DNA of 62,830 nucleotides. It comes from an uncultured Phaeodactylibacter sp. Its GTDB lineage: Bacteria; Bacteroidota; Bacteroidia; Chitinophagales; Saprospiraceae. A program made the translations under genes and the position numbers. The stretch is from assembly GCA_964488965.1 (NCBI GenBank), contig CAZAXA010000001.1:1-62830 (forward strand), in the 5' to 3' direction. This document shows positions 11,170-59,789 of this stretch, in pieces. The notes under the pieces are model-generated. The model was not told where the DNA came from. It worked only from the letters and a program-made list of their open reading frames with translations, and searched no databases. The first letter of the stretch is position 1. Every line of letters starts with the position of its first letter.

Positions 11170-12852
11170 ATGGATAAAGCGCAACTCATATCGGAAGTAA
11201 AGGAACTTCTGGCCAATGCCGAGACGGAGAAGGCCCTCGGCCGGATGGCGGAATTCCTGCAAAACAGCCCGGAGTACCGGCAGTTGTACAACCTTGCCCT
11301 GCAGGCGCGGGCGCAGTTCCGGAAAACCCAGCGGGATGAGCTTCAGGGCCTGGCTTCCGCCGAGCAAAGCAAGCTGAACTACAACCAGGTGACCCGGCAG
11401 GCCTTCCAGATCGCCGAATGGCTGGAAGAAGGGAACCTGCGGCCTGAGGCAGGTTTTGCAGAGGGCAGCCCCCGGCGGTGGCCGCTGGTTGCAGGCATTA
11501 TCGCCCTGCTGCTGATCCTGGGGAGCGGGGGGTATTGGTGGTACCGGTCGCAGCAAGGAAATGCCGAAGAACCCGGGGGAGGTGAAGAACCTCAGCAAAC
11601 CTCCTGCCCTCCGGAAGTGGAGTTCGACCCTGCTTCGGATTTCAATATTCTGGTCATGCCATTTCGAGGCTCGAAAGGGGCGGAACTGCCGCCCCATATC
11701 GCCATTGTCTTTCGCCTGGATGAACTGAAAAATGAATACCGGATTCCCTGCAGCATAAAGGACTTTCCTGTTGATAATCCCGGAAGCGAAATTGCTACCA
11801 CGGAGGACGCGGACAGAAGGGCCAGGGATTGCAAAGCTGAACTTATAATCTGGGGTATTGCCGAGAAGGTTTCCGGCAATACCATCATCTATACCCGTTA
11901 TAAATTTGTCAGCCGTGGAGACCAGTTGCCATTGTACAAGCTTAAAATGACGGAAAATTCCGGGCTGGATACAGTAACCACCATCTCCAGCATCGCCACC
12001 GCCGGTATCCTTACCGAAGGGATTGAGGAGAGTATCAAACTGCTCTTCGGCCTTATCGCCCACGAAAATGAAAACCTGCCGGTGGCTATCGAGATGCTGG
12101 AAAAGTATGAAACGCAGGACTCTGCCGCTACCCTCGTGAAAGGTATGGTACTTGCCCAGGACTACCTGGCCAGCGGCCAGTCGCAGAAAGCCTGGGAATC
12201 CTACAACCAGGTGCTGGACCAGCACCCCAACTACGCCCTGGCCCGCAACAACAGGGGGATGCTCAACTTCCAGAAAGGCAATTATTTAGAAGCCGCCGAA
12301 GACCTCAGCGTGGCCCTGGAAACGGCGCCGGATACCAGCAAGGCGGACATTCTGGAGCTTCGGGGCGCCGCCTACCTCAAGGCCGACCAGTTGGACAAAG
12401 CCAAGGCCGACCTGAAGGATGCCCGGGAATTGCGGCAGCCTGATAAAGGCGTCGATAAAAAAGATGCCCTTGACAGGAAGATCAAAGAGATAGACAGAAA
12501 AATTGAGGCAGAAAAAAGCACCAAGGCATCGGCTGAAGCCAAACTGCGGCTCGACCCCAACAACCTGACGGCACTGAGCCAGAAAGCGGTGTCAAGCCAA
12601 AGGCTGGGCGACTACCAGCAGGCAATCGAGGCCAGCCGGGCCATCCTGCGGAAAGACCCCCGCAATATTGACGCCTACGTAAAGATCATCCAGGCCTACC
12701 GCAGCGCCGGCGATGCCGAACAGATCGAAAAGGCCATCCGGCAGGCCGAAGCTGCCGGCATTTCCAGGGACCGGCTTAACCAATTGACGCCCTTCGACCT
12801 GAACCGGCTGCCTTTGCGGCCCGCCGGCAGTATTCAACTGAAAAAAAACTGA
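11170..12852 (+). CDS. Membrane-anchored TPR protein with an N-terminal helical adaptor-like module
   Basis: 560 aa. Residues 1-90 form a helical module related to the N-terminus of 58395..59789. A TM helix follows (WPLVAGIIALLLILGSGGYWWY). Next is a domain starting FNILVMPFRG... The C-terminal part contains TPR-like repeats (e.g. YALARNNRGMLNFQKGNYLEAAEDLSVAL). Confidence 0.75.
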   Translation: MDKAQLISEVKELLANAETEKALGRMAEFLQNSPEYRQLYNLALQARAQFRKTQRDELQGLASAEQSKLNYNQVTRQAFQIAEWLEEGNLRPEAGFAEGSPRRWPLVAGIIALLLILGSGGYWWYRSQQGNAEEPGGGEEPQQTSCPPEVEFDPASDFNILVMPFRGSKGAELPPHIAIVFRLDELKNEYRIPCSIKDFPVDNPGSEIATTEDADRRARDCKAELIIWGIAEKVSGNTIIYTRYKFVSRGDQLPLYKLKMTENSGLDTVTTISSIATAGILTEGIEESIKLLFGLIAHENENLPVAIEMLEKYETQDSAATLVKGMVLAQDYLASGQSQKAWESYNQVLDQHPNYALARNNRGMLNFQKGNYLEAAEDLSVALETAPDTSKADILELRGAAYLKADQLDKAKADLKDARELRQPDKGVDKKDALDRKIKEIDRKIEAEKSTKASAEAKLRLDPNNLTALSQKAVSSQRLGDYQQAIEASRAILRKDPRNIDAYVKIIQAYRSAGDAEQIEKAIRQAEAAGISRDRLNQLTPFDLNRLPLRPAGSIQLKKN

Positions 12853-17759: not shown

Positions 17760-19400
17760 TTATCTGTGTCCTTTTCTGGCGGTGCTTTCCTCTTCGGCCG
17801 TCGTATACACTTCGAATGAAGCCCGTTCCGGGCTGAGCGCGGCCGTGTACTGGTTTTCAGCAACGATGAAATACTGGATGGCCTCATTGCTTTCCTTTTT
17901 GGCCGTCGCCCCCCAGATGCCGTCGCCTGCCATCTGGTCGTCGTGGCCACTGTCGTCAAACATTTCGAGTTTTCGCCATGGGCCGAGCCTGCCGTAGCGG
18001 TAGAACAACCAGGCGGCCTCCGCCCCTTCCAGGCTGGCATTGAACACCATAATGTCCTCAAAGTCGAGATGCTTCACCTCACTGATAGCCGGCGGCTCCT
18101 TGCTTATCAGCGGATGCTCCATCAGGTATCTGGTGCGCGGGCCCATCAGTTCGGCAATGCCGATGATGCTAACCTTTTCAGCTTTTGCCGTCTCGTACAG
18201 GTTCTTCTCAAAAGCCTCGTAGTCATAAAGCCTGTTGGTATCGCTCTTTACGTAAGGCGCGATCATGCGGTGGATCTCTTCGGCGCGTTTCAGGTAAGTA
18301 CTGTCGACAAAATAGTCTTCCAGGATGGTGCGGATATGGGCCACGTACATCTTCCGGTAAAGGTTATCCGACAAGAGGTTGGTGATAAGGGGGCGCTTTT
18401 CGTTCTTATCCTTGTAATGGATGAAGGGGCTCAGTTCCTGCATCTCCTCGTCGGTAAGGGGGCTGCCTTTGGAGCCGTCGTAACGGAAACCGCCGAAAGA
18501 CAGGTTCATATCCCAGACGATGGGGTGGAAAACGCCTTCGTTGTCCCGGTAGAGGTAGTAATTGTGGCAAAAGCGGCCCGTATAGCTATCGAGGTTGACC
18601 AGCACGATATTGAAGGCCAGCATCCAGAGGGCCTGGTCGATGTTGAAAATGGAGTCGAGTTTCGCCGGTTGCTGGTTGAGGATTTTGGCCAGTTCGATGA
18701 GCTTTTTCCAGCCGAAATCGGATTTAACCTCGTACAGCCCCCGGTAGCACATGGAATCAGGCCCCAGATATTGGAGGGAGGCTTTATCGCCCTGCGGGCA
18801 ATGCGGCAGTTCCTTATACCCCCAGATGGGGTCGCATTTGAAAAGGATGCCATCATCGCCCTTGAAATAATGCTCCAGAAATTCATCCTCCACCGATTCG
18901 GTGCTGTTGTACAGGCCCAGGTAAGCGCCATTGATAAAAAGCTGAACAAAATTAGCGCGGGGCGCGGGCATATAACGGCGGGCGATCTCGTAGGAAAGCA
19001 CTTCCCGTATGAAGGACGGGTCGCGGAAGACGTTGCTCAGCTTTATTTTATCCACCCCTCCCGGCAGCTTCTGGTCTTTGATGGTAAAGTTGAAATCGAT
19101 ATTGAAGGGCAGTTTGGAATAGCCGGATTTCCGGACGTTGAAATAAGAGCTGTTGCCTTTGTAGCGCACGCCTACCCCTTTGTACTTTTTCCCTTCGAAA
19201 ACAGCGTCGCCTACCAGGCGTTGTTCGTACCCCTGCTGTTTAAAGGAATCCAGCACGTATTCCCAGTTATCCGTTTCAAAAATGAGGCGAAGTTCCTTGA
19301 CCTTCCCTACTTCAAAAAGGCCTTCATTGCCCTTATCCTGGGCAGTGAGGACAGTAGTGGCCAATAAGGCTGCGGCCAGGGATAAATGATACCTTAACAT
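17760..19400 (-). CDS. CotH-family (atypical kinase fold) secreted protein, paralog 2
   Basis: 546 aa with a signal peptide. CotH-type core: FRDPSFIREVLSYEIARRYMPAPRANFVQLFINGAYLGLY...ALWMLAFNIVLVNLDSYTGRFCHNYYLYRD. It is colinear with 19508..21121. Confidence 0.8.
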   Translation of the reverse strand: MLRYHLSLAAALLATTVLTAQDKGNEGLFEVGKVKELRLIFETDNWEYVLDSFKQQGYEQRLVGDAVFEGKKYKGVGVRYKGNSSYFNVRKSGYSKLPFNIDFNFTIKDQKLPGGVDKIKLSNVFRDPSFIREVLSYEIARRYMPAPRANFVQLFINGAYLGLYNSTESVEDEFLEHYFKGDDGILFKCDPIWGYKELPHCPQGDKASLQYLGPDSMCYRGLYEVKSDFGWKKLIELAKILNQQPAKLDSIFNIDQALWMLAFNIVLVNLDSYTGRFCHNYYLYRDNEGVFHPIVWDMNLSFGGFRYDGSKGSPLTDEEMQELSPFIHYKDKNEKRPLITNLLSDNLYRKMYVAHIRTILEDYFVDSTYLKRAEEIHRMIAPYVKSDTNRLYDYEAFEKNLYETAKAEKVSIIGIAELMGPRTRYLMEHPLISKEPPAISEVKHLDFEDIMVFNASLEGAEAAWLFYRYGRLGPWRKLEMFDDSGHDDQMAGDGIWGATAKKESNEAIQYFIVAENQYTAALSPERASFEVYTTAEEESTARKGHR

Positions 19401-19507: not shown

Positions 19508-21121
19508 TCAATTATTCAACTCTTCCAGGCTCGCCGTATGCTGCTCGTACATGTACCGCGGCGGGTCGAAGGCAACCGCTTTGGCATTCTCGGCAAAGAT
19601 GTAGTACTGTAAAGCGGCGCCGCCCGCATCCGGCTTCACAACCGCGCCGTACACGCCGTCTTCCCCTTCTCCATCGTTATGCTGGCCGTCATCCCGCATT
19701 TCCATCGACTTGAAGGGCGCGGCAGGGTCAAAGCGGTAGTACAACACCACGCTCTTGGGAAACTTGTCCACCCGCGCCTGTATCTTAAAGTCCGTAACCC
19801 TTTCCGATGAAAAGCGTTCGCGGCGCGTGACCGACACCTCGCTCACTTCCGGGGGTACGACCGACAGGAGGGCATTCTCCTTCAGGTAGGCGGTGCGGGG
19901 GCCCATCAGTTCCTGCAGGCCCGGTATGCGGCTCCGGTTGCCGATGGTGCTCGTCAGGCTGGCGTCAAAGTCCTCCATGCTGTAGTAACGGTTGGCGTCC
20001 TCTTCAAAGGCCTTTCGGATAAGGGCCTGCAGTTCCCGTGCGCGTTCGGCGTATTGGTCCCTGCGGAAGAAATCGTTCATCATCGTCCGCAGGTGAGCCA
20101 GGTAGGTTTTCTGATACACTTCATTGCTGAGCAGGCGGCTGATGAGCGGCTTGGCAGGGTTGTCGATGTGCAGCAACGGATTCATCTCCTGCAGTTCCTT
20201 GAGCTTCAGGTCAGAACCGATGCCGGTGTTTTTGTAACTGCCAAAGCACAGGTTCAGGTCGTAGAGGATAGGCGTGAACTGCCCCTGCTGGTCCTTGTAC
20301 AGATAATAATTCTCGCTGTAGCGGCCGGTGTAGCTGCTCAGGTTAACCAGGAGATTGTTGAAGGCCAGCATCCAAAGGGCCCGGTCGACATTAAGAACCC
20401 GGCTGGCCTCGTCCGGTTTCGAATTGAGAAGATAGGTCAGCTCGATGAGGTCGTCCCAGCCGGATTCGGACAGCAGCACGAAGTTGCGCAGATAACACTT
20501 GGCGCTGTTGTCGTACTGGAGGGAACCGAATACATCACTTTTACACCCCTGTGGTTCTTCCTCCACCAGATCGGGGGCGCATTGCACGAAGGTGCCTTTG
20601 CTGTTGCCAAAATGATGGGCCAGAAAAGCGTCGTCGATGGGCTCTATGTTAACGAACAGGCCGTAATACTCGCCGTTGACAAATACTTTGGTGTAGTTGG
20701 CCCGGGGCGCCGGCAAATACTGGCGGGCGATCTCATAGCCCAGCACTTCCCGCACCATGCTCGGGTCGCGCAGGGCGCTCGACAAGTTAACTGTCTGCTG
20801 CCCCTGGTAGTTCTGCTCCTTATCGATGAAGTTGAGCTTGATGTAAAGGCTGTTGCGCTTGCTGCCGGGCTGAAAGGAGCGGCTGCCCCGGTAACGGACG
20901 CCGATGTCGTTGAACTTTTGGCCGTTGATCTCGATGGAGCCCAGCAGCAGGCCTTCGCCGTTGAAACGCAGCGAGTCCAGCACATAGCGCCAATTCTCCT
21001 GTTCAAAGCTGATCTTTATCTCCTGGATGGTATTCACATCGTAGAAATCGTCTTGAGCCAGAACAGGGGAAAAAGAACTTAGGAGGATTAGGCTGAGGAA
21101 GGTCAGAATGCTTCTTTTCAT
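19508..21121 (-). CDS. CotH-family (atypical kinase fold) secreted protein, paralog 1
   Basis: 537 aa with a signal peptide (MKRSILTFLSLILLSSFSPVLAQ). Core: LRDPSMVREVLGYEIARQYLPAPRANYTKVFVNGEYYGLF...ALWMLAFNNLLVNLSSYTGRYSENYYLYKD. Confidence 0.8.
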   Translation of the reverse strand: MKRSILTFLSLILLSSFSPVLAQDDFYDVNTIQEIKISFEQENWRYVLDSLRFNGEGLLLGSIEINGQKFNDIGVRYRGSRSFQPGSKRNSLYIKLNFIDKEQNYQGQQTVNLSSALRDPSMVREVLGYEIARQYLPAPRANYTKVFVNGEYYGLFVNIEPIDDAFLAHHFGNSKGTFVQCAPDLVEEEPQGCKSDVFGSLQYDNSAKCYLRNFVLLSESGWDDLIELTYLLNSKPDEASRVLNVDRALWMLAFNNLLVNLSSYTGRYSENYYLYKDQQGQFTPILYDLNLCFGSYKNTGIGSDLKLKELQEMNPLLHIDNPAKPLISRLLSNEVYQKTYLAHLRTMMNDFFRRDQYAERARELQALIRKAFEEDANRYYSMEDFDASLTSTIGNRSRIPGLQELMGPRTAYLKENALLSVVPPEVSEVSVTRRERFSSERVTDFKIQARVDKFPKSVVLYYRFDPAAPFKSMEMRDDGQHNDGEGEDGVYGAVVKPDAGGAALQYYIFAENAKAVAFDPPRYMYEQHTASLEELNN

Positions 21122-27653: not shown

Positions 27654-30600
27654 ATGGCCACTGTAAAGCTCAATATTCCCACCCTGATAACGGACGCCAG
27701 GATAGAGGACAAGGTTCATTACCATCTGCGGCCCTTATTTACCGGCTTTCCGGTAGCCAGGCACCGCCGTTTTGACAATGCGGTAGCTTTATTTCAGAAA
27801 GAGGTCCGGCACACTTTCCGTTCTTACCGCCTGGACCGCCAGGGCGCCGGCCACCTGCTGTGGTTTATGTTCAGGCCGGAAGTGCATTATCAGCAGTACC
27901 ATTTCGAGTTCGACCTCGGCAGGCAGTTCGTCAGCGGGCCTTTCGGGGTAGTCCATTTCAGGCTGGAAGGCAAGGTTTTTGTCCTGTTGCCTGCCATCCG
28001 CAATTTCATGTTCATGCTTCCTGCCGAAAAAGGGGACAAAACCGACGTGGAAGGGGCGTCGAAGGAGGCCATACAGGCCATGCTGCGCAACATCAAAAAA
28101 GAAGACGAGAGCGAGTTCAGGCCGGAGGTTTTTTTTGCCGGCCGGCGGGAATTCATCACCACCATAGAGGTAACGGTAAATATCGGGCAGGGTAGCTTCA
28201 GTTTCGAGGCTCCTTCCGCTCACTGGTTTTTTGCCAGCCTTATGGACGATACCAATTTTGACGGAGCTGTAGAGATCGAACGCGTCGGCCAGAACCTGAA
28301 CAGCCTCTACCCTTCCGAACTACGGCGCGCCTACTACCAGGAGGAACTCGTGGGACAGTTGTACAAGGCCATTTTCCAGGGAGGCAATACGCCCCTGGCC
28401 ATTGTCGGGCCGGAGGGCGTCGGCAAGCACACTATCATCCATGAGGTATTGTGGAGGTATGAAAGCGGATTTTACGAAACCCGCAAAGGGCGCGCCCAGC
28501 GCATCTGGCTGATCGACCCCAACCGGATCATCTCCGGGATGAGCATTGTCGGCATGTGGCAGAAGCGCTTCGAAGCTATCCTCTCCTATGTGATAAAGCC
28601 GGGAGAAGCCGCCAAAACCAGCGACAAAATCCTGATAGACAAACCCGTAGCCTTGCTTCGCATCGGAAAATCGGCTCAGAGCACCATGGCCCTCAGCGAT
28701 GTGCTGCGCCCCTACCTGGAGAAACGGCAATTGCAGGCCACCTTGCTGGCCAGCCCGGAAGAATGGAAAGTGATCCAGGAAAGAGGGCGGCGTTTTGCCG
28801 CCCTCTTCCAGGTAGTACGGCTCAGCGAGCCCGGGCAGGCGGAAGCCATCCGGATCATCCTGAAAAACCGGCGCGCCCTGGAACGGGAGAACGATTGCTC
28901 GATAACCATACAGGCGGTTCAGCAACTGCTGGCCATACAGCGCAACTACCTGAAGAACAAACCCCTGCCTGGAAGCGTAATGAAGCTGATGCAGCAACTG
29001 GCCGTCAAGCACCGCTACCGCTCAGTCAATGCTCCGGAAGTCCGCGAAGAATTTAAGGCCTTCAGCGGCCTGGAGGAGCGGATTTTTGATTCTGCGCGGC
29101 AGTTCCAGGAGGAAGAAGTGCACCGGCATATATCCCAGGAACTGGTCGGCCAGCCCCGGGCGGTAGAGGCGCTGGCCAATATCGTGCACATCATCAAGGC
29201 CAAACTGGCGGACAAAGGCCGGCCGCTGGGCTCCTTCCTGTTCATCGGCCCGACAGGGGTCGGCAAAACGCAGGCGGCCAAGGTGCTGTGCAAATACCTG
29301 ATGGGCGACGAGAAGTACCTGATGCGCTTCGACATGAACGAGTACATAGACCAGGGGGCCGTTCACCGCCTCATCGGGGACGACTTCAACCCGGAAGGGC
29401 AGCTCACCGGCGCCGTTCGCTACCGCCCCTTTGGCATCGTGTTGCTGGATGAGATCGAAAAGGCCCACCCCCGTATTCACGACCTGTTGCTGCAACTTCT
29501 GGATGACGGCCGGCTCACCGACAGCATGGGGAGGGCGGTTGATTTCACCAACACGGTCATCATCATGACCTCCAATGTGGGGTCGCAGCAGGTGAATACC
29601 CGCCTGGGGTATCAAGCCGGCCCTGAAGATGATGCCGCCGTCTACCGCCGAGCCGTCGAGCAGGAGTTTCGGCCCGAGTTCATCAACAGGATCGGGCAGA
29701 TCGTCATCTTCAACGCTCTGGAGCTCGGCCACATTCTTGGCATCGCCCGCCTTCAAATCCGGGAACTGTTGCAGCGTGACGGCTTTGTGCGGCGGACTAC
29801 TATTCTCAATATTTCCAAAGAAGCGCTGGAATGGGTGGCCCGGCGGGGCTTTGACGCCCGCATGGGAGGGCGGGCCCTGAAGCGGCAGATAGAACGGGAC
29901 CTCACCTCCCTGTCAGCCAAACAACTGATCTCCACGCAGGCTGAAACACCCATTCTCTTCGACGTCCTCCTGGAAGAAGGCCGCCTCATACCGGTGATCC
30001 GGCCCCTGCAGTTCGTCCAGCCGATCGAGGACGACTGGCTGCCAGAACTTCCCGATGAAACCCGGGGCAAGCCCTTTTATAACCAGTTGCTCCGCAAACT
30101 GGAACACATCCGCAGCCAGCTGCTTGATTTTGAGGAAAAGAGGGAAGCCCACACCGAACCTTTGGTGTATGCCGAGGGGCGCGCCTCCAGCGGCCTGGGC
30201 TGGGAATACTACCACTTCAAAGACAGGGTAGAAGAAACCCGTGAAAACATCAATAATATCAGCCTGGGATTCAGGGACAGGAACTACAAATACGGGCCGG
30301 CCATTCCCCTGCGCCTCAAGCCGGTCAGCCTGGTTCCTAAAAAGGATTGGTCTGCCAAGGGCATAAGAGAAAACATCAAGGACCGTTTATTCCAGCAGGA
30401 AGGTATCCGGGAGATAAGCGAGGCTTATCATTTCGGGATGGCGCCCTTTGACAGCATCAAGACGGAATTTATCGGCAACTACCTGGATGTGGCCTTGCTG
30501 CAGATGCAGCTCAGGGGCGTACTCAGGGGGCGGCCGGAGAAGAGAAACCTGAAAATAAAATCTTACCTCACAGGAATGGGGGAATGGGAAACCGCCTTTT

Positions 30601-30965
30601 TGCTCGATAAGTACTCCGAACTGTTCCAGTTGCTGGATATTCCCCACAAAGTACACAAGAACCGCGGCCTGATCGATATTGAAGCTTTTTCCCTCTACGA
30701 ACTCCTGCAGGGTGAGGAAGGCATTCACCTTTTCTATCCGGGGCAGCGCAACCCCATTCCCGTCCACGTCTCACTGGGGGTAAAAGGCAGGGAGGAAAAT
30801 GCCTACCGGGTAGTGCGCATTTACGACGGGGCCGATACGCTGACAGACCTGCGCACAGGCTTTTCCAATGCCGTCAATATTACGGCCAGTGAATTCAAGC
30901 TGTTGCTTTATGCCGGCATCGGCAAAGGGCTGCGCGGCCTGCTCAACCCGTTCCGAAATAAATGA
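27654..30965 (+). CDS. Atypical Clp/Hsp100-like double AAA+ protein (degenerate D1, intact D2) with unassigned N-terminal (~235 aa) and C-terminal (~320 aa) domains
   Basis: 1103 aa. The D1 Walker A is GPEGVGKH and the Walker B position is ILIDK. The D1 small domain is Clp-like (VVRLSEPGQAEAIRIIL...LPGSVMKLMQQLA). D2 is canonical: FLFIGPTGVGKTQ, IVLLDEIEKAHPRIHDLLLQLLDDGRLTD, VIIMTSN, GGRALKR. Confidence 0.85.
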   Translation: MATVKLNIPTLITDARIEDKVHYHLRPLFTGFPVARHRRFDNAVALFQKEVRHTFRSYRLDRQGAGHLLWFMFRPEVHYQQYHFEFDLGRQFVSGPFGVVHFRLEGKVFVLLPAIRNFMFMLPAEKGDKTDVEGASKEAIQAMLRNIKKEDESEFRPEVFFAGRREFITTIEVTVNIGQGSFSFEAPSAHWFFASLMDDTNFDGAVEIERVGQNLNSLYPSELRRAYYQEELVGQLYKAIFQGGNTPLAIVGPEGVGKHTIIHEVLWRYESGFYETRKGRAQRIWLIDPNRIISGMSIVGMWQKRFEAILSYVIKPGEAAKTSDKILIDKPVALLRIGKSAQSTMALSDVLRPYLEKRQLQATLLASPEEWKVIQERGRRFAALFQVVRLSEPGQAEAIRIILKNRRALERENDCSITIQAVQQLLAIQRNYLKNKPLPGSVMKLMQQLAVKHRYRSVNAPEVREEFKAFSGLEERIFDSARQFQEEEVHRHISQELVGQPRAVEALANIVHIIKAKLADKGRPLGSFLFIGPTGVGKTQAAKVLCKYLMGDEKYLMRFDMNEYIDQGAVHRLIGDDFNPEGQLTGAVRYRPFGIVLLDEIEKAHPRIHDLLLQLLDDGRLTDSMGRAVDFTNTVIIMTSNVGSQQVNTRLGYQAGPEDDAAVYRRAVEQEFRPEFINRIGQIVIFNALELGHILGIARLQIRELLQRDGFVRRTTILNISKEALEWVARRGFDARMGGRALKRQIERDLTSLSAKQLISTQAETPILFDVLLEEGRLIPVIRPLQFVQPIEDDWLPELPDETRGKPFYNQLLRKLEHIRSQLLDFEEKREAHTEPLVYAEGRASSGLGWEYYHFKDRVEETRENINNISLGFRDRNYKYGPAIPLRLKPVSLVPKKDWSAKGIRENIKDRLFQQEGIREISEAYHFGMAPFDSIKTEFIGNYLDVALLQMQLRGVLRGRPEKRNLKIKSYLTGMGEWETAFLLDKYSELFQLLDIPHKVHKNRGLIDIEAFSLYELLQGEEGIHLFYPGQRNPIPVHVSLGVKGREENAYRVVRIYDGADTLTDLRTGFSNAVNITASEFKLLLYAGIGKGLRGLLNPFRNK

Positions 30966-50632: not shown

Positions 50633-50691
50633 TCGCGGCACGGCGCTTTTGAACAATGTCCGCTGGCCCTGCGATCAGAATGATCGCGGCA

Positions 50692-53337
50692 CTATTCACC
50701 GAACAACAGCAGCCCGCTCCATATTGCCGGCGCTGCCGTTGCCTTAGCCCGGATCATTCCGAGCTTGGCCTGCCGAAGCGCCGCCGCGGGGCTTTGGCCA
50801 CCAAGCAATTCCTTATAAAGGGGCGCCATCATTTCCACAGCATAGATACTGGCAGGCTTCCAGAGGGATATTATTACATTGGAGGCGCCGGCATCCAGAA
50901 AAGAACGGCTCAGGGAGAGGGCGCCTTCACCTTCCGCCAACTGCCCCATGCCGCTATCACAGTTGCTGACCACCACCAGTTCGGCCTGAAGCGTCAGGGT
51001 GGCGGCCTCCGGACAGAAGAGGATACCGTCTTCGGCGCTGCCGCCTTCCTTTTGGGCGAAGGCGATACCGGACAGAGCGGGGGTGGCCTCGTTGATAAAA
51101 CCGTGCGTGGCCAGGTGCAGGTAGCGGCAATGCCCGGCGCGCTCCCGGAAAGCCGGCTCGCTGGCCTCAGCCCGGAGCAGCGCCGCTGCGGTTTGTTTTT
51201 TACCGGAAAACTGTTCCAGGATGCCATTCATCTCTATTTCCGAGAGTGGCAGGGGAAGGAAGCGGCGCCCGTCGGGAGCGGCGGCGAGCAGGCTTCTGCT
51301 CTGCTGGTAAGCAGTGTCGAAGACAAAAGCGTTGCTGCTTCCGATGGCGTTGTCATTTGCCTGTTGGCTGAAAAAGGGGGCCATGCCCAGCAGGCCTTCG
51401 CCGTAGTTGCCGGACGGAGCGCCTGCCCTCGCGAAGAGGCTTGCCGAATGCCGGTACTGAACGGCCACATCTCCGATGAGGTAATCGAGCTTGTGCAGTT
51501 TTACCTTTTCCGGTTTGTCCATCCTGTTGGCGGACAGCGCTTCAAAAGGAATATGGACAAGCTTCCCGTGGGGAAGGATGATGAGTTCTTCTTTCTCATC
51601 GAGCAGTCCCTTTACCGGGAGGATGAGCCGCCTATAGAGGTTGCCGCTGTAAAAAGCGAATTTCTGTTCGTCCCCTTGCCGGATAGCCTTCAGGTAGCCG
51701 TCGATGGCATCGGGCAGGGCGGGCAGTTTCAGTTCCTCGTCCGGCCCGGCGCTGAGTTGCGATACTGTGAAACTGCCGTCGGCCAGGGCAAAGATGAAGT
51801 AATGGCTATTGCCGGTGAAGTAGGCCAACATGGCCTGCTTTTTGCCGAGTTTGCCCTGCAACTGTTGAGGCGTAGCCAGTTCCAGGGCGAAGCGTTGCCG
51901 GTAGTAGGCCGGCGAAGCGCTTTGGAGGCTTTCGGCGAAGGCCCGGTAGGCCTGCCGCCGGCGCTCCAGTTTTTGCTGCAGGCCCGCCTTGTCGGGGTAG
52001 AGGTTGAAGTCCGCCTCTGCCGCTTTCATGGCGTAGCGCAGGCGGGCTTCTTCTTCCCGCAGGTCCGGCGGCAGTTGCGCAAGCCCCTGCCGGTGGATGC
52101 GGTTGAGGCGCAGTGCCAATGCCCGGGCGCGTTCGGAAAGCTCGAAGGCCTTTTCGGCCTGGGCAGGGTTGCCTGTTGCCCGATAAAGCCGGCAGGCTGC
52201 GGTTATGCCCGCCTCGAAGACGGGAATATGTTCTTCCAGGATGGCCAGGCGGTTATTCTCGTCAATAAGCAGGGCCGCTTCCTCTTCCAGCGCTTCGATG
52301 CCGCGCTGGCTGGCAGCCAGGGCCTGCCCGAGGTGTTCCTGCCCGCCTGCTTTAAGCAGCAGGGCCGCTTTTGCCGACAGGGCGCGGGCCAGCAGGAGGC
52401 GGCTGAGGGAAAGCTGTTCCGGGCCGGGATTATCCCCGATGCGGGCGCCGGCAAAGCCCGGGCAGAGCTGGCGGAGCGCTTCCTGCACGGCATAACGGGC
52501 GCCTGCCGTATCTTCTGTGCTGAGCCGGAGTTCCGCCAGAGCGATCAGGCTACGGCCCAGTTCGCGGCGGCTTCCGCCATCAGGGCTTTGAAAAGCCTCT
52601 CTGGCCAGAGCATAGCAGGCCTCGGCTTTCTGGAAGGCCCCTTCCCGGAAGGCCAGTTCTCCCCGGGCGTCATACAGCTGCCCCTTGCGGGCGGCGCCGC
52701 CCGCCAGCCCTTTTTCCACGGCCAGAGCTTTTTCCATCCATTCCCAGGCAGCTTCCGTATTCCCTTCGAGCAGGCAGGTGCGCCCAATGTAGTAATAATT
52801 GATGGCAACGGCCGGCGCCTCTTCCCCTTCTTCGATCAGGAGGATATCCAGCGACTGTTGATAGTACCGGCGGGCCCGTTCGTACTGTTTAAGTTCCGCA
52901 AAGGTATGGCCGAAATGTTCCTTGATACGGGCGGCTGTCTGCGGGGCGTCGATAAGGGGGAATGCCTCGGAGCGGAACAACTGGGCCAGCGCCCGCTCGT
53001 ATTGGCCCTGCCGGAGATAGATGGCGCCGGCGCGCAGGTAGTTTTTTGCAGCATCTTCAGGGATGAACTGCTGCAGCAGTTCCAGGGAGGCGGCGTTGTC
53101 GGCCAGGGCGGCCGCCAGGTTGCCCAGTTGCAGGTAGTTGTAACTCCTCAGGAAGAGGGCCTCTCCCTTATCGTACAAGCGGCCGGGATGGGCATCCATA
53201 AACTCGCCGAGCAGCGCATTAGAGGCCTCGTAGCGGCCGGCAGCGGAAAGGGCTTCGGCCTCCCCGAGCATCTTTTCGGGCTGTGCCTTGGCGGTATGTA
53301 AAAAAGTGAGCAGTACAAAGAGCAGGGGATATTTCAT
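50692..53337 (-). CDS. Secreted TPR-repeat CHAT-domain (caspase-like) protease
   Basis: 881 aa with a signal peptide (MKYPLLFVLLTFLHTAKAQ). About 550 aa of TPR-like repeats are followed by a C-terminal CHAT domain with a His/Cys dyad context (YLHLATHGF ... LVVVSNCDSGMG). Confidence 0.9.
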   Translation of the reverse strand: MKYPLLFVLLTFLHTAKAQPEKMLGEAEALSAAGRYEASNALLGEFMDAHPGRLYDKGEALFLRSYNYLQLGNLAAALADNAASLELLQQFIPEDAAKNYLRAGAIYLRQGQYERALAQLFRSEAFPLIDAPQTAARIKEHFGHTFAELKQYERARRYYQQSLDILLIEEGEEAPAVAINYYYIGRTCLLEGNTEAAWEWMEKALAVEKGLAGGAARKGQLYDARGELAFREGAFQKAEACYALAREAFQSPDGGSRRELGRSLIALAELRLSTEDTAGARYAVQEALRQLCPGFAGARIGDNPGPEQLSLSRLLLARALSAKAALLLKAGGQEHLGQALAASQRGIEALEEEAALLIDENNRLAILEEHIPVFEAGITAACRLYRATGNPAQAEKAFELSERARALALRLNRIHRQGLAQLPPDLREEEARLRYAMKAAEADFNLYPDKAGLQQKLERRRQAYRAFAESLQSASPAYYRQRFALELATPQQLQGKLGKKQAMLAYFTGNSHYFIFALADGSFTVSQLSAGPDEELKLPALPDAIDGYLKAIRQGDEQKFAFYSGNLYRRLILPVKGLLDEKEELIILPHGKLVHIPFEALSANRMDKPEKVKLHKLDYLIGDVAVQYRHSASLFARAGAPSGNYGEGLLGMAPFFSQQANDNAIGSSNAFVFDTAYQQSRSLLAAAPDGRRFLPLPLSEIEMNGILEQFSGKKQTAAALLRAEASEPAFRERAGHCRYLHLATHGFINEATPALSGIAFAQKEGGSAEDGILFCPEAATLTLQAELVVVSNCDSGMGQLAEGEGALSLSRSFLDAGASNVIISLWKPASIYAVEMMAPLYKELLGGQSPAAALRQAKLGMIRAKATAAPAIWSGLLLFGE

Positions 53338-55205: not shown

Positions 55206-58200
55206 TCAAACCGGAATACTAAAGCTCAAAACCCCTTTTGCCTGGTGCAACTCTATCTGATGAACAGCCCCCATATCCGACAACAGGCTCACCATTTCCC
55301 CGGACTGCAGGAAGTTGTTCAGCACTGTCCTGTCCGCCTCAGTTTTATCGAACTCTATAACAAAACTCAACTGCATTTTATCCCGCCCCAGGTACACCTG
55401 CAAAGAGCGCGTACCAGCCCTCAAAAGGCTGTCGACCGACGCTTTTACCAGCCGGAGGAACATCTGCCGGAACTGCATATCGAGGGCCAGCGCGCCGATT
55501 TCCGGGCCGGCGAGCAAGCCTATATCCGCACGGCCTTCGCTGCGGAGCCTGTCGGCATACGCCTCGATCCGCTCCACGGCTTTGGCCATGCTGTCGTTCT
55601 CCGGCGCCACGGCCCAGAGCATATCGTCCATGGCCTGCATCATCTGCTGCGATTTGCTGGTGATCTGCTCCAGGTAGCCGGCCGCCCTGGCCGGATCCTT
55701 TCGCGCCTTGATGGCCGCCATCTCGCTCAGGATGTGGATGCTGTTCAGTACCGTCCTGACCTGCGCGTGCAACTGATCGGCAATCTTTGCCCGCATCTGC
55801 TGGACGGATTTCGTCCTGCGCATTCTCTCCCGGTCGAAAAGGAAAATGAGCGCCCCGGCAGCCAGGCCAACGAGGCTGTAAAACCACCAGGCCTGCCAGA
55901 AGGGCGGGTTACGCCGGATGGGGAGCGCCCGGATGGGGCCCAGGGTCCCGTCTGCATAAACCGGTTGAAGAAGAAAGCGGTAAGAGCCGGCCGGCAGGTA
56001 AGAATACACGGCAATATTTTTCTCGTTAACCTGCCAGTCCTGATCCAGGCCCTCCATCTTGTAGCGGATGCTGTTGCTGCCGTAGAACTGCAGGGTGGAA
56101 AACTCCATGGCCAGGGCGCTTTCGTAGTGTCGAAGCCGGAGGCCGCCGGCCTCTTCCAGCGAATCCACCAGCATCAGGCGGTTGTTAACCTGCAGGCTTG
56201 TCAGCGTAGCCGCCGGCCTGTCATTTTCGATTTGATTGAAAACAGCCGGGTCGAACACCACAAAAGACTCCGACGCGCCGAATAACATCCTGCCGTCGGG
56301 AAGGGCATAGGAAGAGGCCAACACGAAGTTTTCATCATCGATACCGTCGCGGCGGCCAAACTGCAGTACTGTCGAAGTATGGATGTTGGCCCGGTACAAT
56401 CCACTGGTGGTAGATATCCAGACATTTCCGGACTGGCCAGGGGCGAGGTCTGCAATATATCCGGCCAGGGCCTCCTCCACTTTGACCCTGGCCAGCGCCC
56501 TGCGTTTCCGGTTGAACACCAGCAGGGACGACAGGCCGGAAACGGCCACCAGGCTGTCGTTGTAATCGAGCACCGATGAGGCGCCGGCGTCCGGCAGGCG
56601 CAGTTCGGGCACTGCATGCTCATTGTCCAGGCGCATGGTTATCTGCCCTGTGGCCGGGTCGATGACGCAGAGCCCCCGGCTTTGCGTGGCCACCCACAAC
56701 AGGCCTTCCCTGTCGACGATCATTTTGTTGATGCTGCAGTCGGGCAGCCCTTCGAATCTGGAAGGGCCCTGCCCCGCCGGGCGGCCGGAACGATCACATT
56801 TCCAGCGAAAGAGGCCGATGCCCTGCATGCCCAGCCAGAGGTCGCCGCGCCGGTCCTCCACAACCTGCCGGATGGTGTGGTTTTCCAGCATTCCGGACCG
56901 GTAAACTTCCATCGTATTGGCCCGCTCATCATAACGGATAACCCGCCCCGGCTGCGACGACATCCATATGACGCCCTCCCTCCGCGAAAGGCTCATACTC
57001 CAGATGCTGTACTCTTTTATGCCTGGGTCGCCCTTGTAGTCAAAGGGCAGCTCATTCCATTGGCCGTCGTAGCGGTACAGCCCGTCGCCCCAGACGGATA
57101 CCAGCACCGTACTGTCCGCCAGCCGGATAAAATCGGTGGGGCTGCCGTGCCCGCGCTGGTTCAGGCGCCGGTTGAAATGGCTGATGTTGCGAAAGTATTC
57201 CCTGCCGGGATTGAAGGTAAATATCCCGTTGTCGCTCGTACCTGCCCAGATCGTATGCTCGCGGTCCTCAAACAGGCATTTGATGGACTGGTAACGGATA
57301 GGCCGGTTGGCGCCGGAGCCGTTGGGAACCAGTTGGAAAGTGTCCGTAACCTCATTGTACCGGGCAAAAATATTGGCGCCGTACAGCCAGACAGCCCCAT
57401 CACGGCTTTCGAAAAATGGGGCGGCCTCAATATAACCGCCTGTGAGCACGGCCGGCTCGTAACCACGGATCAGCGCCGTTTTTTCGGCAAGGCCGAAGCT
57501 GTAAACCTTTGGCGTATGGTAAAGGTAAGGCCAGGACTGGCACCAGAGCCGGCCCCTGTGGCTGGCCAGCAGATTATAGGTTTCCGCTCCCTCCGGATAG
57601 CCCGGCAGGCGCAGGGGCTCCAAAGCTGCCCCGCTACCGTTCCAGCCGCCTTGCCGGGTATGGAAAAGAAACAACCCCTCCGGCCCAAAGCTCAGGACAT
57701 AATCGGAGGAACCCGGCAGCGGCGCCAGGCCGGAAACCCGCCAGCCCTTCGATGCCGGCGCCGGAAAGGCGTAATCGTGGAAATGGCTTTTTTGTTCATC
57801 CCAGATGTACAGCCCCCCTCTGATGCCCAGGATGAAAATATTGCCCCAGGCGTCGCCAAGGAAACGTGCCTCCGGCAACCGCTCCACCTTTCTGCCGCCT
57901 TCGAAGATGCCGGCTTCCCGGAAGGACTGTTTGCCGGTGTCAAAAATACCCGCAACGCCCTCCCCGGACATCAGCCACAACCGGCCCCGCCGGTCGACGT
58001 ACAGATGCCCGACCACATTCGACGGGATCGACCGCTTATCCCCGGGGTCATGTTTGAAATTGCGGAAACGGATGCCGTCATAACGCTGCAGGCCGTGCGA
58101 GGTCCCGATCCAGATATACCCCTGGCTGTCCTGAGTTATGGCATTGGCCGAATTGGAGGACAAACCCTGATCCGTGCTAAGGTGTTTAAATGAAAAATGG

Positions 58201-58265
58201 ATTTCCTGCGCAGGGAGGAAGACGTACGGCAAGACATTGAGCAGGAAGGTGCAAAGGCCCCGCAT
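55206..58265 (-). CDS. Beta-propeller/Y_Y_Y-type periplasmic sensor with a TM helix, HisKA_3-like dimerisation helix and a degenerate ATP-binding domain
   Basis: 1019 aa. It has 'two-component regulator propeller'-type repeats (GYIWIGTSHGLQRYDG, LWLG, VWIST...), a TM helix (WWFYSLVGLAAGALIFLF), and a DHp-like segment (ADQLHAQVRTVLNSIHILSEMA). The last ~110 aa lack the N-box, DxGxG and GxGL motifs. Confidence 0.8.
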   Translation of the reverse strand: MRGLCTFLLNVLPYVFLPAQEIHFSFKHLSTDQGLSSNSANAITQDSQGYIWIGTSHGLQRYDGIRFRNFKHDPGDKRSIPSNVVGHLYVDRRGRLWLMSGEGVAGIFDTGKQSFREAGIFEGGRKVERLPEARFLGDAWGNIFILGIRGGLYIWDEQKSHFHDYAFPAPASKGWRVSGLAPLPGSSDYVLSFGPEGLFLFHTRQGGWNGSGAALEPLRLPGYPEGAETYNLLASHRGRLWCQSWPYLYHTPKVYSFGLAEKTALIRGYEPAVLTGGYIEAAPFFESRDGAVWLYGANIFARYNEVTDTFQLVPNGSGANRPIRYQSIKCLFEDREHTIWAGTSDNGIFTFNPGREYFRNISHFNRRLNQRGHGSPTDFIRLADSTVLVSVWGDGLYRYDGQWNELPFDYKGDPGIKEYSIWSMSLSRREGVIWMSSQPGRVIRYDERANTMEVYRSGMLENHTIRQVVEDRRGDLWLGMQGIGLFRWKCDRSGRPAGQGPSRFEGLPDCSINKMIVDREGLLWVATQSRGLCVIDPATGQITMRLDNEHAVPELRLPDAGASSVLDYNDSLVAVSGLSSLLVFNRKRRALARVKVEEALAGYIADLAPGQSGNVWISTTSGLYRANIHTSTVLQFGRRDGIDDENFVLASSYALPDGRMLFGASESFVVFDPAVFNQIENDRPAATLTSLQVNNRLMLVDSLEEAGGLRLRHYESALAMEFSTLQFYGSNSIRYKMEGLDQDWQVNEKNIAVYSYLPAGSYRFLLQPVYADGTLGPIRALPIRRNPPFWQAWWFYSLVGLAAGALIFLFDRERMRRTKSVQQMRAKIADQLHAQVRTVLNSIHILSEMAAIKARKDPARAAGYLEQITSKSQQMMQAMDDMLWAVAPENDSMAKAVERIEAYADRLRSEGRADIGLLAGPEIGALALDMQFRQMFLRLVKASVDSLLRAGTRSLQVYLGRDKMQLSFVIEFDKTEADRTVLNNFLQSGEMVSLLSDMGAVHQIELHQAKGVLSFSIPV

Positions 58266-58394
58266 GGTCGGATTTCTTTGAAAACAAAGCTAAGAAATGT
58301 TCTTTATTTTCCGGGGCCTGTGCGCATCTCACCCAAAATCTTTGTAAATTACACTTTGGCCGCCAAGCTATGATCAAACTCAAAAAAGAAGGTC

Positions 58395-59789
58395 ATGGAA
58401 GGCCTGGATAAAATAAAACGCGGCCTGGAAAAACTGGTAGGCGAAGACCACCTCCCCGAAGCATTCGCCCGCCTTTTGGAGGCCCTTCCGGAAAAGTCTC
58501 CACAGCGCAGCGCCGTGCTGTTGCTGAAAAGCAGGATGAAGGGCGCCGAAAAGAAGCGTGCGGAAGGGACGATGAGCGACGAGAAGGTCGAACGCGCCCT
58601 CAACCGCATCCGCTCGGCCCTGCTGAAACTGATCGGCGGGCTGGAAGCAAGCGATTTTGACCCCGGACAGATGCCCTCCAGGCTGTCCCAATCCGGCAAG
58701 GTCAAACAGGGCAGCATCCTGCACCGCATCCCGGGGCAGATGGAGCTCCTGAAGGAAACGCGCTGCCTGGTGCGCATCGCGCTTGACGAAAAGACTCTCC
58801 TCGAGAACATCAGCCTGGACGAGCACTCCAAAATCGAATCTCTCCGCATCGCCGAGGCCATGGAGGTGGAACTGGCCGGCCCCGATAAGGGCAATACCTT
58901 CTCCATCCGAAATGTGAACAGGACAAAGCAGTTCATCGACGAAGACGCGCCCACGCAATGGCTGTTTTACGTCAGGCCCCTCCGGCAGGGCGTCTTCCCG
59001 CTGATTCTGAAGGTGGCGGTGATCGAGAAGGTGCATGGCGAAGAATGCCGGCGGGAGGCCGTATTCGAAAGGACGATCGACATCGTGGCCGGGCCGGCGG
59101 AGGAAGCTGAAGAAGACGCCTTCGAACGGGCAGGTTTTTCCTTCAACTATTATACCACCAGCACCATGGCCGGTATAGATGCCGTCGCTGTCACTCAACC
59201 GGAAGTGGCCGGCAAGGAGCCCTTCCTCATGCAGGTCGAGGATGTGTTCACCCTCCGGGGGCAGGGCACGGTGGTCGCCGGCAGGATCGTGCAGGGCGTC
59301 GTCAGGGCGGGCAGCACGGTCGAGATCGTCGGCGAGGAGGCCTCCGGGGCAAAACCGAAGGCCCTTACGGCGACGGCCGTGGAACTGTTCCGCAAAATGC
59401 CGGACGAGGAGGAGGAAGAGGACGACGCCATCCGCCGCCTGCTGCTGCGGGGCATCCGCAAAGGCGCCATACAGCGGGGCATGCTCATCCGTTCACCCGG
59501 CGCCGCCCACGCCCGCTTCATAGCGGAGTTACGCCTGCCGGGCAAAGTGGAAGGCGGGTGGTTCAGGGCAGTGCACGGCGGCTACCAGCCCCGGTTTTAC
59601 TTCGGCGCCATTGACATGGCCGGCCAGTTGAAGCTGCCTGGCAGCATAGAAATGGCCATGCCGGGCGACAGCGTTACCGTTGAGGTGGAACTGGCGCAAC
59701 CTCTTGCTGTGGAGAAAGGCCTGCGCTTTGCTATTCGCGAGGGTGGGCTGACCATGGGGGCAGGCAAGGTGACGAAGGTGTTGAAATAG
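58395..59789 (+). CDS. Fusion protein: N-terminal helical adaptor-like module + beta-rich middle region + EF-Tu domain II/III homolog lacking the GTPase domain
   Basis: 464 aa with ATG at 58395. Residues ~274-464 match EF-Tu domains II-III motif by motif: EPFLMQVEDVF, GTVVAGR, VEIVG, LFRK, LLLRGI, GYQPRFYF, MPGD, GLRFAIREGGLTMGAGKVTKVLK. No P-loop, DxxG or NKxD motif occurs anywhere in the protein. Confidence 0.85.
   Translation: MEGLDKIKRGLEKLVGEDHLPEAFARLLEALPEKSPQRSAVLLLKSRMKGAEKKRAEGTMSDEKVERALNRIRSALLKLIGGLEASDFDPGQMPSRLSQSGKVKQGSILHRIPGQMELLKETRCLVRIALDEKTLLENISLDEHSKIESLRIAEAMEVELAGPDKGNTFSIRNVNRTKQFIDEDAPTQWLFYVRPLRQGVFPLILKVAVIEKVHGEECRREAVFERTIDIVAGPAEEAEEDAFERAGFSFNYYTTSTMAGIDAVAVTQPEVAGKEPFLMQVEDVFTLRGQGTVVAGRIVQGVVRAGSTVEIVGEEASGAKPKALTATAVELFRKMPDEEEEEDDAIRRLLLRGIRKGAIQRGMLIRSPGAAHARFIAELRLPGKVEGGWFRAVHGGYQPRFYFGAIDMAGQLKLPGSIEMAMPGDSVTVEVELAQPLAVEKGLRFAIREGGLTMGAGKVTKVLK

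Follow-up and report, generated by a model that had tools for sequence, protein, structure and literature searches.

The window analyzed here, a 62,830-nucleotide stretch of contig CAZAXA010000001.1 from an uncultured Phaeodactylibacter species, contains a gene for a soluble 464-residue protein in which an effector-associated domain (EAD) of the EAD11 family is joined to a conserved beta-sandwich and then to domains II and III of elongation factor Tu (EF-Tu), without the GTPase domain of that factor. The positions of the gene, of its domains, and of two local sequence replacements in the EF-Tu part are collected in Table 1, together with the presumed promoter region and a second EAD11 gene in the same window.

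Three Pfam profiles match the fusion protein: EAD11 (PF19964) at residues 7 to 84 (E 1.9e-15, 57 bits against a cut-off of 26), GTP_EFTU_D2 (PF03144) at residues 291 to 365 (E 9e-10, 39.3 bits against a cut-off of 30.3), and GTP_EFTU_D3 (PF03143) at residues 371 to 462 (E 3.7e-22, above the gathering cut-off), and there is no Pfam match to the G domain (GTP_EFTU, PF00009) anywhere in the 464 residues. A preliminary description, made from the sequence without database searches, had placed EF-Tu domains II and III in the C-terminal ~190 residues and had predicted matches to the two EF-Tu profiles and none to the G domain; its reading is further borne out by the match of residues 260 to 463 to solved EF-Tu structures (E 1.6e-48 against PDB sequences), and all the motif pairs that it quoted are found in the EF-Tu alignment. 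It was also right that the GTPase motifs are missing, as a motif scan found neither GxxxxGK[ST] nor [NT]KxD anywhere in the protein, and the sole DxxG is a DMAG at residue 407, within domain III. Nor is a G domain encoded upstream, either at the window locus or at the locus of the ortholog P0002 described below. The NCBIfam EF-Tu models (TIGR00485 / PRK12735) align only with residues ~226 to 464 of the fusion, corresponding to EF-Tu positions ~166 to 396, and score it at 178.8 to 190.2 bits against cut-offs of 449 to 522.4, far below the curated threshold for a whole EF-Tu. Two of these models begin aligning at residues ~226 to 255, so a small piece of the final G-domain helix may persist in the linker.

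Table 1. Features of the fusion locus and the second EAD11 gene (window coordinates).
Feature	Position	Strand	Basis
Presumed promoter region, 129 bp separating the fusion gene from the divergent Reg_prop/Y_Y_Y sensor gene	58266..58394	.	gene coordinates
EAD11/beta-sandwich/EF-Tu domain II+III fusion gene, monocistronic	58395..59789	+	intact open reading frame, 464 residues
EAD11 effector-associated domain, helical bundle, residues 7-84	58413..58646	+	Pfam PF19964, AlphaFold2
Conserved beta-sandwich (mid) domain, residues 105-231, without Pfam family	58707..59087	+	AlphaFold2, family conservation
Acidic, fast-evolving linker, residues 232-272	59088..59210	+	AlphaFold2 pLDDT <50
EF-Tu domain II homolog, residues 273-368	59211..59498	+	Pfam GTP_EFTU_D2, PDB EF-Tu alignment
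Acidic loop DEEEEEDDA, in place of the EF-Tu loop DEGRAGEN(V) with N273	59403..59429	+	alignments
EF-Tu domain III homolog, residues 369-464	59499..59786	+	Pfam GTP_EFTU_D3, AlphaFold2, Foldseek
GGWFRAV, in place of near-invariant GGRHTPF (E. coli 316-322, domain III)	59553..59573	+	alignment with 102 EF-Tu sequences
Second EAD11 protein, 560 residues: EAD11 at 6-82, transmembrane helix at about 104-124, unassigned region, TPR repeats	11170..12852	+	Pfam EAD11, E 1.1e-9

AlphaFold2 models agree with the helical head and beta-rich middle proposed in the preliminary description, with helices extending to residue 88 and the beta-rich region spanning residues 105 to 231, each at a predicted local distance difference test score (pLDDT) above 90. 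The EAD11 helices are modeled at residues 4-16, 20-30, 36-57, and 62-81 (pLDDT about 90-97), and the model of the beta-sandwich has a pLDDT of 91.9 and a predicted template-modeling score of 0.84. Domain III is modeled at a pLDDT of about 90, and its best Foldseek matches are EF-Tu structures (E about 2e-11). Domain II has low confidence in the full-length model because of an artefact of the alignment and not because of disorder: MAFFT had aligned the EF-Tu rows with the N-terminal module, so that residues 261 to 320 had zero EF-Tu coverage. Taken over the PDB match, the Foldseek comparison, and the alignment, the structural cores of both EF-Tu domains are preserved, and there is no hydrophobic transmembrane segment in the window protein or in its relatives P0001 and P0002.

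The head and the middle domain are not an ad hoc assembly but jointly form a conserved two-domain module of a large family. An exhaustive HMMER (phmmer) search with residues 1 to 256 of the fusion recovered 934 representative clusters at E up to 0.001, 216 of them at E up to 1e-30, with protein lengths from 210 to 1573 residues; against 149 representatives these 256 residues match at E 1e-36 to 1e-60 with 34-45% identity. Domains were tallied for the 150 representatives listed of the 934 clusters, 146 of which were scanned against Pfam, and EAD11 is present in all 146. The middle domain shares with the fusion protein the invariant residues G106, M116, C124, R127, W189, and others, and the family motifs ILxRIP, CxVRIA, and TxW-F-V-PL are likewise found in it. 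A profile search of PDB sequences with the middle domain returned nothing, and Foldseek matched it only to generic Ig-, macroglobulin-, or PapD-like sandwiches (template-modeling score 0.35-0.49, best E 7.6e-4). Homologs of the sandwich also occur on three phage-like IMG/VR viral contigs (L018 4734..5501, L019 4740..5498, and L021 4667..5431), in proteins of ~253 residues that have a lipoprotein-type signal, a sandwich 27-29% identical (motif YTEWxFNVTPL), a C-terminal transmembrane anchor, and a basic tail, but no EAD11; the middle domain therefore exists outside the EAD11 family, and also in viruses.

What follows the two-domain module differs from member to member. Among the 146 scanned representatives the C-terminal domain is FGE-sulfatase in 35, Fib_succ_major in 18, TonB_C in 12, Lcl_C in nine, YfiO-like in four, PG_binding_1 in three, Ig/cadherin or FHA in a few, and TIR in one, so that by domain assignment the variable position is filled mostly by binding domains. 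EF-Tu domains were found only in P0001 and P0002 among the representatives listed. A hydrophobic helix follows directly after the beta-sandwich in 128 of 155 members, and lysine plus arginine residues are more frequent before this helix than after it (means of 3.6 and 1.5; 108 cases against 8). Because of this charge asymmetry, and because N-terminal signal peptides are essentially absent among the members, typical family proteins are predicted to be single-pass membrane proteins with the N-terminus inside, the EAD11 and the sandwich being cytoplasmic and the binding domain extracytoplasmic. In the fusion protein the EF-Tu part has replaced both the transmembrane helix and the extracytoplasmic binding domain that most members carry.

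The EF-Tu part derives from a Saprospiria-type tuf gene of the bacterium's own lineage, because the fusion and Saprospiria EF-Tu share a 4-residue insertion in domain II (ASGAKP in the fusion; ASEAKP, AAGTKP, and similar in EF-Tu), and the EF-Tu proteins that it matches best come from Lewinella and Saprospiraceae. Many derived substitutions are common to the two orthologs (P213Q, E232V, R233Q, G257A, G275R, the loss of GGRHTPFF, and others), which points to one founding event. Divergence from the parent has been substantial: the fusion's EF-Tu part is about 50% identical to Saprospiria EF-Tu, whereas the identity between the EF-Tu proteins of Lewinella and E. coli over the same region is 67%. 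When 113 positions conserved in at least 95% of 102 EF-Tu sequences were taken as a reference, the window protein was found to keep 73 of them and the other two fusion proteins 77 and 69, with 59 of the 113 kept by all three together. The losses concentrate in the 265-275 loop, which is now acidic, at 316-323 and 327-338, and at 232-233. GGRHTPFF, N273 with its loop, and E232/R233 are changed in all three proteins, Q329 and T338 in the window protein and P0001, and E378 in P0002. Kept in all three are the aminoacyl pocket residues E215, D216, F218, E259, and R262 and the 5'-phosphate contact R288; the GLRFAIREGG block and T382 are also retained from EF-Tu. The canonical residues R223, T228, and R381 differ among natural variants of the fusion.

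The preliminary description had reported that GGRHTPF is replaced by GGWFRAV, which is correct (P0002 has EGKPAAI at this site), and had labeled the motif as the aminoacyl-end pocket, which is not, as the motif lies within the Pfam D3 match and the pocket residues are retained. We take GGRHTPF to belong to the T-stem contact and the domain I/III interface of EF-Tu rather than to the pocket. It does not follow that loss of the motif abolishes binding of the aminoacyl end, since the changes fit the loss of the domain I interface at least equally well. The kirromycin-resistance sites G316, Q329, A375, and E378 also lie at the domain I/III interface, and substitutions fall at these positions in the window protein (Q329R, at residue 400) and in P0002 (the equivalents of G316E, A375T, and E378K), consistent with release of this interface once the G domain was gone. 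The acidic run reported in place of the DEGRAGEN loop is confirmed in the alignments, and P0002 likewise has an acidic or charged loop there (EENEKNDK). The acidic loop was set aside as an argument against nucleic-acid binding; the domain II-III part as a whole is more basic than EF-Tu (isoelectric point about 9.3 compared with an EF-Tu mean of 6.4). In bacteria at large the surface of EF-Tu that contacts aminoacyl-tRNA is more than 99% conserved (PMC3239215), and as this surface is changed here, the copy has left the canonical role. The fusion proteins, as judged from the alignments, depart from this near-universal conservation of the contact residues. The fusion protein is not expected to deliver aminoacyl-tRNA and cannot act as a GTP-dependent tRNA carrier; the pattern of losses is, at the same time, partly that expected from loss of domain I alone and does not identify a new function.

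Several observations indicate that the gene is maintained. The identical fusion protein occurs on 6 contigs, and the 4 places that were read, from 4 sequencing runs, have the same flanking genes. Its 90% cluster holds nine sequence variants (P0001 and P0269-P0276 among the members), all of 464 residues, with 22 variable sites; the nine form two haplotype groups plus apparent recombinants. The ortholog P0002, from a Phaeodactylibacter metagenome-assembled genome, has 480 residues and the same architecture and is 57% identical to the window protein (49% in the EF-Tu part, 68% in the adaptor part), so that the fusion has been kept intact in two lineages. For the comparison with P0002, in which the synonymous rate dS of about 0.45-1.5 is near saturation, the ratio of the nonsynonymous rate dN to dS is 0.33 overall, 0.38 in EAD11, 0.21 in the middle domain, ~1.1 in the linker, 0.26 in domain II, and 0.30 in domain III (dS of the EF-Tu domains about 1.0-1.5), with dN at 0.26-0.47 in the EF-Tu part and 0.17-0.18 in the adaptor part. 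Compared with the 96%-identical P0001 the ratio is 0.43, and it is 0.06-0.12 for three neighboring genes. By these rates the gene is subject to purifying selection, yet it changes more quickly than the genes around it, and within the protein the EF-Tu part is evolving faster than the adaptor. In domain II the window type differs from P0001 by five nonsynonymous changes, including R223Q and T228A at positions invariant in EF-Tu, and one synonymous change, and in domain III by two nonsynonymous and seven synonymous changes, counts that are too small for testing.

The gene is thus not a decayed tuf copy, as the preliminary description had argued from the intact frame, and the nine full-length variants, the ortholog, and dN/dS values well below 1 strengthen that view. 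An artefact or decaying remnant, whether an assembly chimera or a tuf pseudogene joined by chance to an upstream gene, would be in keeping with the great rarity of the architecture, which was found in two lineages only. We nevertheless consider it extremely improbable, given that an identical protein recurs on 6 contigs, with the same flanking genes at the 4 places read from 4 runs, which contradicts a frameshifted remnant or a chimeric join, that the variants are all of one length, that a diverged ortholog has the same architecture, and that both EF-Tu domains show constraint at a dS of about 1.0-1.5. One apparent relative was rejected: P0003 (446 residues, on a JGI contig of 2109 bp) had been considered as a possible full-length intermediate paralog but is a normal EF-Tu with its last ~50 residues duplicated in tandem, probably by an assembly artefact, and the duplication inflated its search score.

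EADs are defined as small, non-catalytic adaptors of NTPase-centered conflict systems in which one copy sits on a core component and others on effector or signaling domains, sometimes elsewhere in the genome, and the copies are proposed to meet through homotypic contacts (Kaur, Burroughs, Iyer, Aravind 2020, PMC7159879; Kaur et al. 2021, PMC8195603). The head, which the preliminary description had called adaptor-like, is therefore a homotypic adaptor as these authors define it. In their source data EAD11 is at the C-terminus of proteins with LRR, AP-GTPase, and COR domains in Haliscomenobacter hydrossis (Saprospiria), it is documented next to TIR and caspase variants, and the FGS (FGE-sulfatase) domain is read as a lectin-like sensor of invaders (Kaur et al., PMC7159879, PMC8195603). 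The terms EF-Tu, EFTU, and GTP_EFTU are absent from the main texts and available supplements of both papers. The second EAD11 protein of the window is encoded 47 kb away from the fusion; it has no beta-sandwich, and its EAD11 shows no BLAST-level similarity to that of the fusion. Having two such proteins in one window means that this genome uses EAD11 on several proteins, and the second is a possible member of the same EAD11 network, though not its NTPase core. A word-indexed protein search with the EAD11 domain alone returned no partner, and tblastn of residues 1 to 256 against plasmids returned nothing. The EAD11-bearing AP-GTPase genes are not on the 150 kb that were read of the Haliscomenobacter plasmid pHALHY01. 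This plasmid (L013) has at 11-34 kb a dense cluster of conflict-type genes, with two NACHT proteins, a caspase-family protein, a 2048-residue SUMF1/FGE-like protein, a MoxR ATPase, and a CHAT protein, and a pair of SLATT and nucleotidyltransferase genes nearby.

The upstream neighbor of the fusion gene, a Reg_prop/Y_Y_Y sensor gene (55206..58265, minus strand), is divergent and the downstream neighbor, a LysR gene, is convergent, so that the fusion gene is monocistronic. No sigma-70 consensus was found in the 129-bp intergenic region, though this consensus says little for Bacteroidota. Similar gene sizes had first suggested synteny with the Phaeodactylibacter locus, but protein comparison shows the neighborhood of P0002 to be unrelated, as only the fusion gene and a 22%-identical paralog of the Reg_prop sensor match. 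Besides the population represented by the window, the fusion lineage is carried by one of 185,579 species genomes, and lineage-specific patterns did not find it in JGI metagenome contigs or IMG/VR; matches in phage collections were ordinary tuf genes in host-contaminated or mislabeled records. Two-component genes adjoin several other family members as well: a hybrid kinase at L001, a Reg_prop protein at L009, and at L007, L008, and L010 a His_kinase and LytTR regulator pair ending 25 nt upstream of the family gene. There are none at L016 or L017, and the association may be coincidence.

Other genes of the window include one for an 881-residue TPR and CHAT (caspase-like) protein with a signal-peptide-like N-terminus (50692..53337, minus strand), 5 kb from the fusion gene, which has no homolog at the Phaeodactylibacter locus; an open reading frame of equal length on the plus strand (50656..53301) mirrors it and is most likely a non-coding antisense frame. 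At 27654..30965 (plus strand) there is a gene for a 1103-residue protein with a single ClpB-type AAA_2 domain and D2-small domain at residues 523 to 763 and ~520 N-terminal residues without a Pfam match, and at 17760..19400 and 19508..21121 (both minus strand) lies a tandem pair of CotH kinase-family genes.

The reading that we prefer, at a probability of roughly 0.4, is that the fusion protein serves an EAD-type conflict network as a non-enzymatic, adaptor-coupled module for binding or sensing. The preliminary description had suggested an EF-Tu mimic or decoy that senses or sequesters factors binding domains II/III and is coupled to a partner through its N-terminal adaptor, an idea that is plausible. 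A sensor or binding module is favored because the variable position of the family holds mostly binding domains and because the EF-Tu part is the faster-evolving part of the protein. In the scheme that we infer, every functional step of which is conditional and which builds on the anatomy, origin, selection pattern, and family context described above, the EF-Tu-derived double beta-barrel would bind a cytoplasmic ligand, the favored candidate being a protein of an invader (for instance the major capsid protein of a phage) whose usual docking site is EF-Tu domains II-III, and the EAD11 head would couple this binding, by EAD11-EAD11 contact of the homotypic kind, to a core switch protein whose gene lies elsewhere in the genome. 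The narrower possibility that the copy is a bait, wired to EAD11 so that a phage protein docking on it triggers a switch of the LRR / AP-GTPase type, must be regarded as doubtful. It is attractive because the T4 Gol peptide binds EF-Tu domains II-III and licenses Lit (PMC3014915), and because Avs7, a sensor of capsid protein, binds host EF-Tu through the same domains (preprint 10.64898/2026.01.04.697583).

A number of considerations count against this reading. Identity to the parent EF-Tu of only about 50% weakens a strict mimic, and a bait for proteins that bind a conserved target should keep the surface of that target, about half of whose near-invariant positions have been lost; many of these losses (316-323, 329, 375, 378) are explained simply by the loss of the domain I interface. 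Relaxed constraint, instead of an arms race, could account for the higher dN in the EF-Tu part. The immune context rests on the EAD11 annotation, itself a computational prediction, no core NTPase with EAD11 was found within the 62.8-kb window, and the gene stands there alone among housekeeping genes with no defense island around it. The family member with TIR shows that the variable position can hold effectors, and so rare a lineage could be a short-lived evolutionary experiment.

One alternative is that the EF-Tu fragment without the GTPase, once clustered or released through EAD11 by an activated core system, competes with real EF-Tu at the ribosome (where domain II contacts the 30S shoulder), at EF-Ts (domain III), or at aminoacyl-tRNA ends, so that protein synthesis stops as in abortive infection. 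The TIR member speaks for an effector, and the retention of E215, D216, F218, E259, R262, and R288 in all three fusion proteins would suit such a competitor. High-affinity binding of aminoacyl-tRNA, however, requires the G domain, and the loss from all three of GGRHTPFF, N273 with its loop, and E232/R233, together with that of Q329 and T338 in the window protein and P0001 and of E378 in P0002, speaks against a competitor, as does the variation of the domain II loop residues R223 and T228 among natural variants. Most C-terminal domains of the family are, moreover, non-catalytic binders and not toxins. Most modules linked to an EAD act as effectors in the model of Kaur et al., and EF-Tu-based arrest of translation is a known outcome of defense, by Lit and by type IV Thoeris (preprint 10.64898/2026.01.04.697583), but a stoichiometric competitor would have to match a protein that makes up 6-10% of the proteome (same preprint). 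On balance we hold an effector to be unlikely. A related proposal, in which the EF-Tu-derived part only docks the EAD11 and the beta-sandwich onto the translation machinery for the network to monitor or act there, is decidedly improbable. It draws on the preserved cores of domains II and III and on the family members with the N-terminus inside, whose TonB_C, PG_binding_1, YfiO-like, and lectin-like C-termini look like envelope anchors or binders, yet the canonical ribosome and tRNA contact residues have been lost; on sequence data alone this proposal is indistinguishable from the sensor.

Immunity itself may be the wrong frame, in which case the EAD11 and beta-sandwich proteins would be a general signaling or scaffolding family of Bacteroidota envelope proteins, and the EF-Tu variant a lineage-specific regulator, for example one linking translation status to the nearby two-component sensor. 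The family genes examined are solitary and lie among housekeeping genes, PADLOC-DB 2.0 returned no family at E up to 1 for the fusion protein, and two-component genes adjoin the window gene and those at L001, L007, L008, L009, and L010, all of which agree with such a role. Two-component sensor genes are, on the other hand, very abundant in the genomes of such bacteria, and the association is missing at L016 and L017. The extreme variability of the C-terminus, the lectin-like FGS domain, and a dN/dS of 0.43 where neighboring genes have 0.06-0.12 are typical of conflict genes, and EAD11 is documented on LRR / AP-GTPase / COR proteins and beside TIR and caspase variants. These points lead us to consider a non-immune role improbable, and to retain the adaptor-coupled sensor, tentatively, as the preferred reading.

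The adaptor class to which the fusion belongs is known, and the EF-Tu module attached to it is new. Like EAD-linked conflict proteins, the fusion has a terminal EAD11 above the Pfam threshold, joined to a module that varies among relatives, in a solitary gene away from any core, as the EAD principle allows, and like the Haliscomenobacter EAD11 proteins it comes from a member of the class Saprospiria. It differs from the EAD proteins of Kaur et al. in that EF-Tu domains II and III make up the module joined to the EAD, that EAD11 is here always followed by a conserved beta-sandwich without a Pfam family, and that no cognate core protein was found in the window. Compared with typical members of its own family, it lacks the transmembrane helix and the extracytoplasmic domain and has a cytoplasmic EF-Tu-derived module instead. 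Regardless of the function of the fusion, a large undescribed family is defined by EAD11 and a new beta-sandwich, with lectin-like or envelope-binding ectodomains, in a layout that resembles the receptor-adaptor arrangement of animal death receptors, and the repertoire of EAD11 is extended beyond the AP-GTPase proteins of the original report.

With EF-Tu (TIGR00485) the fusion shares homologous domains II and III, taken from the tuf of its own lineage, and several pocket residues, but it has no G domain, a different N-terminal partner, and changes at about half of the near-invariant positions of domains II-III. EF-Tu is involved in phage-host conflict in Lit/Gol, type IV Thoeris, Avs7, the Q-beta replicase, and several toxins, and to our knowledge every known case uses the normal EF-Tu. 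The likeness to Lit/Gol and Avs7 is that EF-Tu domains II-III serve there as a docking surface for a phage capsid protein or an immune sensor; the difference is that those systems use the full-length EF-Tu of the cell and encode no EF-Tu-derived domain, whereas the fusion is a dedicated, diverged copy placed on an adaptor. If the copy serves as a sensor or bait, bacteria can duplicate a housekeeping target and dedicate one copy to surveillance, and the protein would be a compact means of identifying the phage proteins which contact EF-Tu. Were it specifically a bait, it would hard-wire what Avs7 and Lit accomplish with host EF-Tu. The integrated decoys of plant NLR receptors, such as the WRKY domain in RRS1 and the HMA domain in RGA5, are similar in concept, as a copy of a host target domain mounted on immune hardware traps pathogen proteins, though this is an analogy only and the copy here sits on a bacterial adaptor protein and not in an NTPase receptor; a true bait would give bacteria their first counterpart of the integrated decoys of plants, here made out of a core translation factor.

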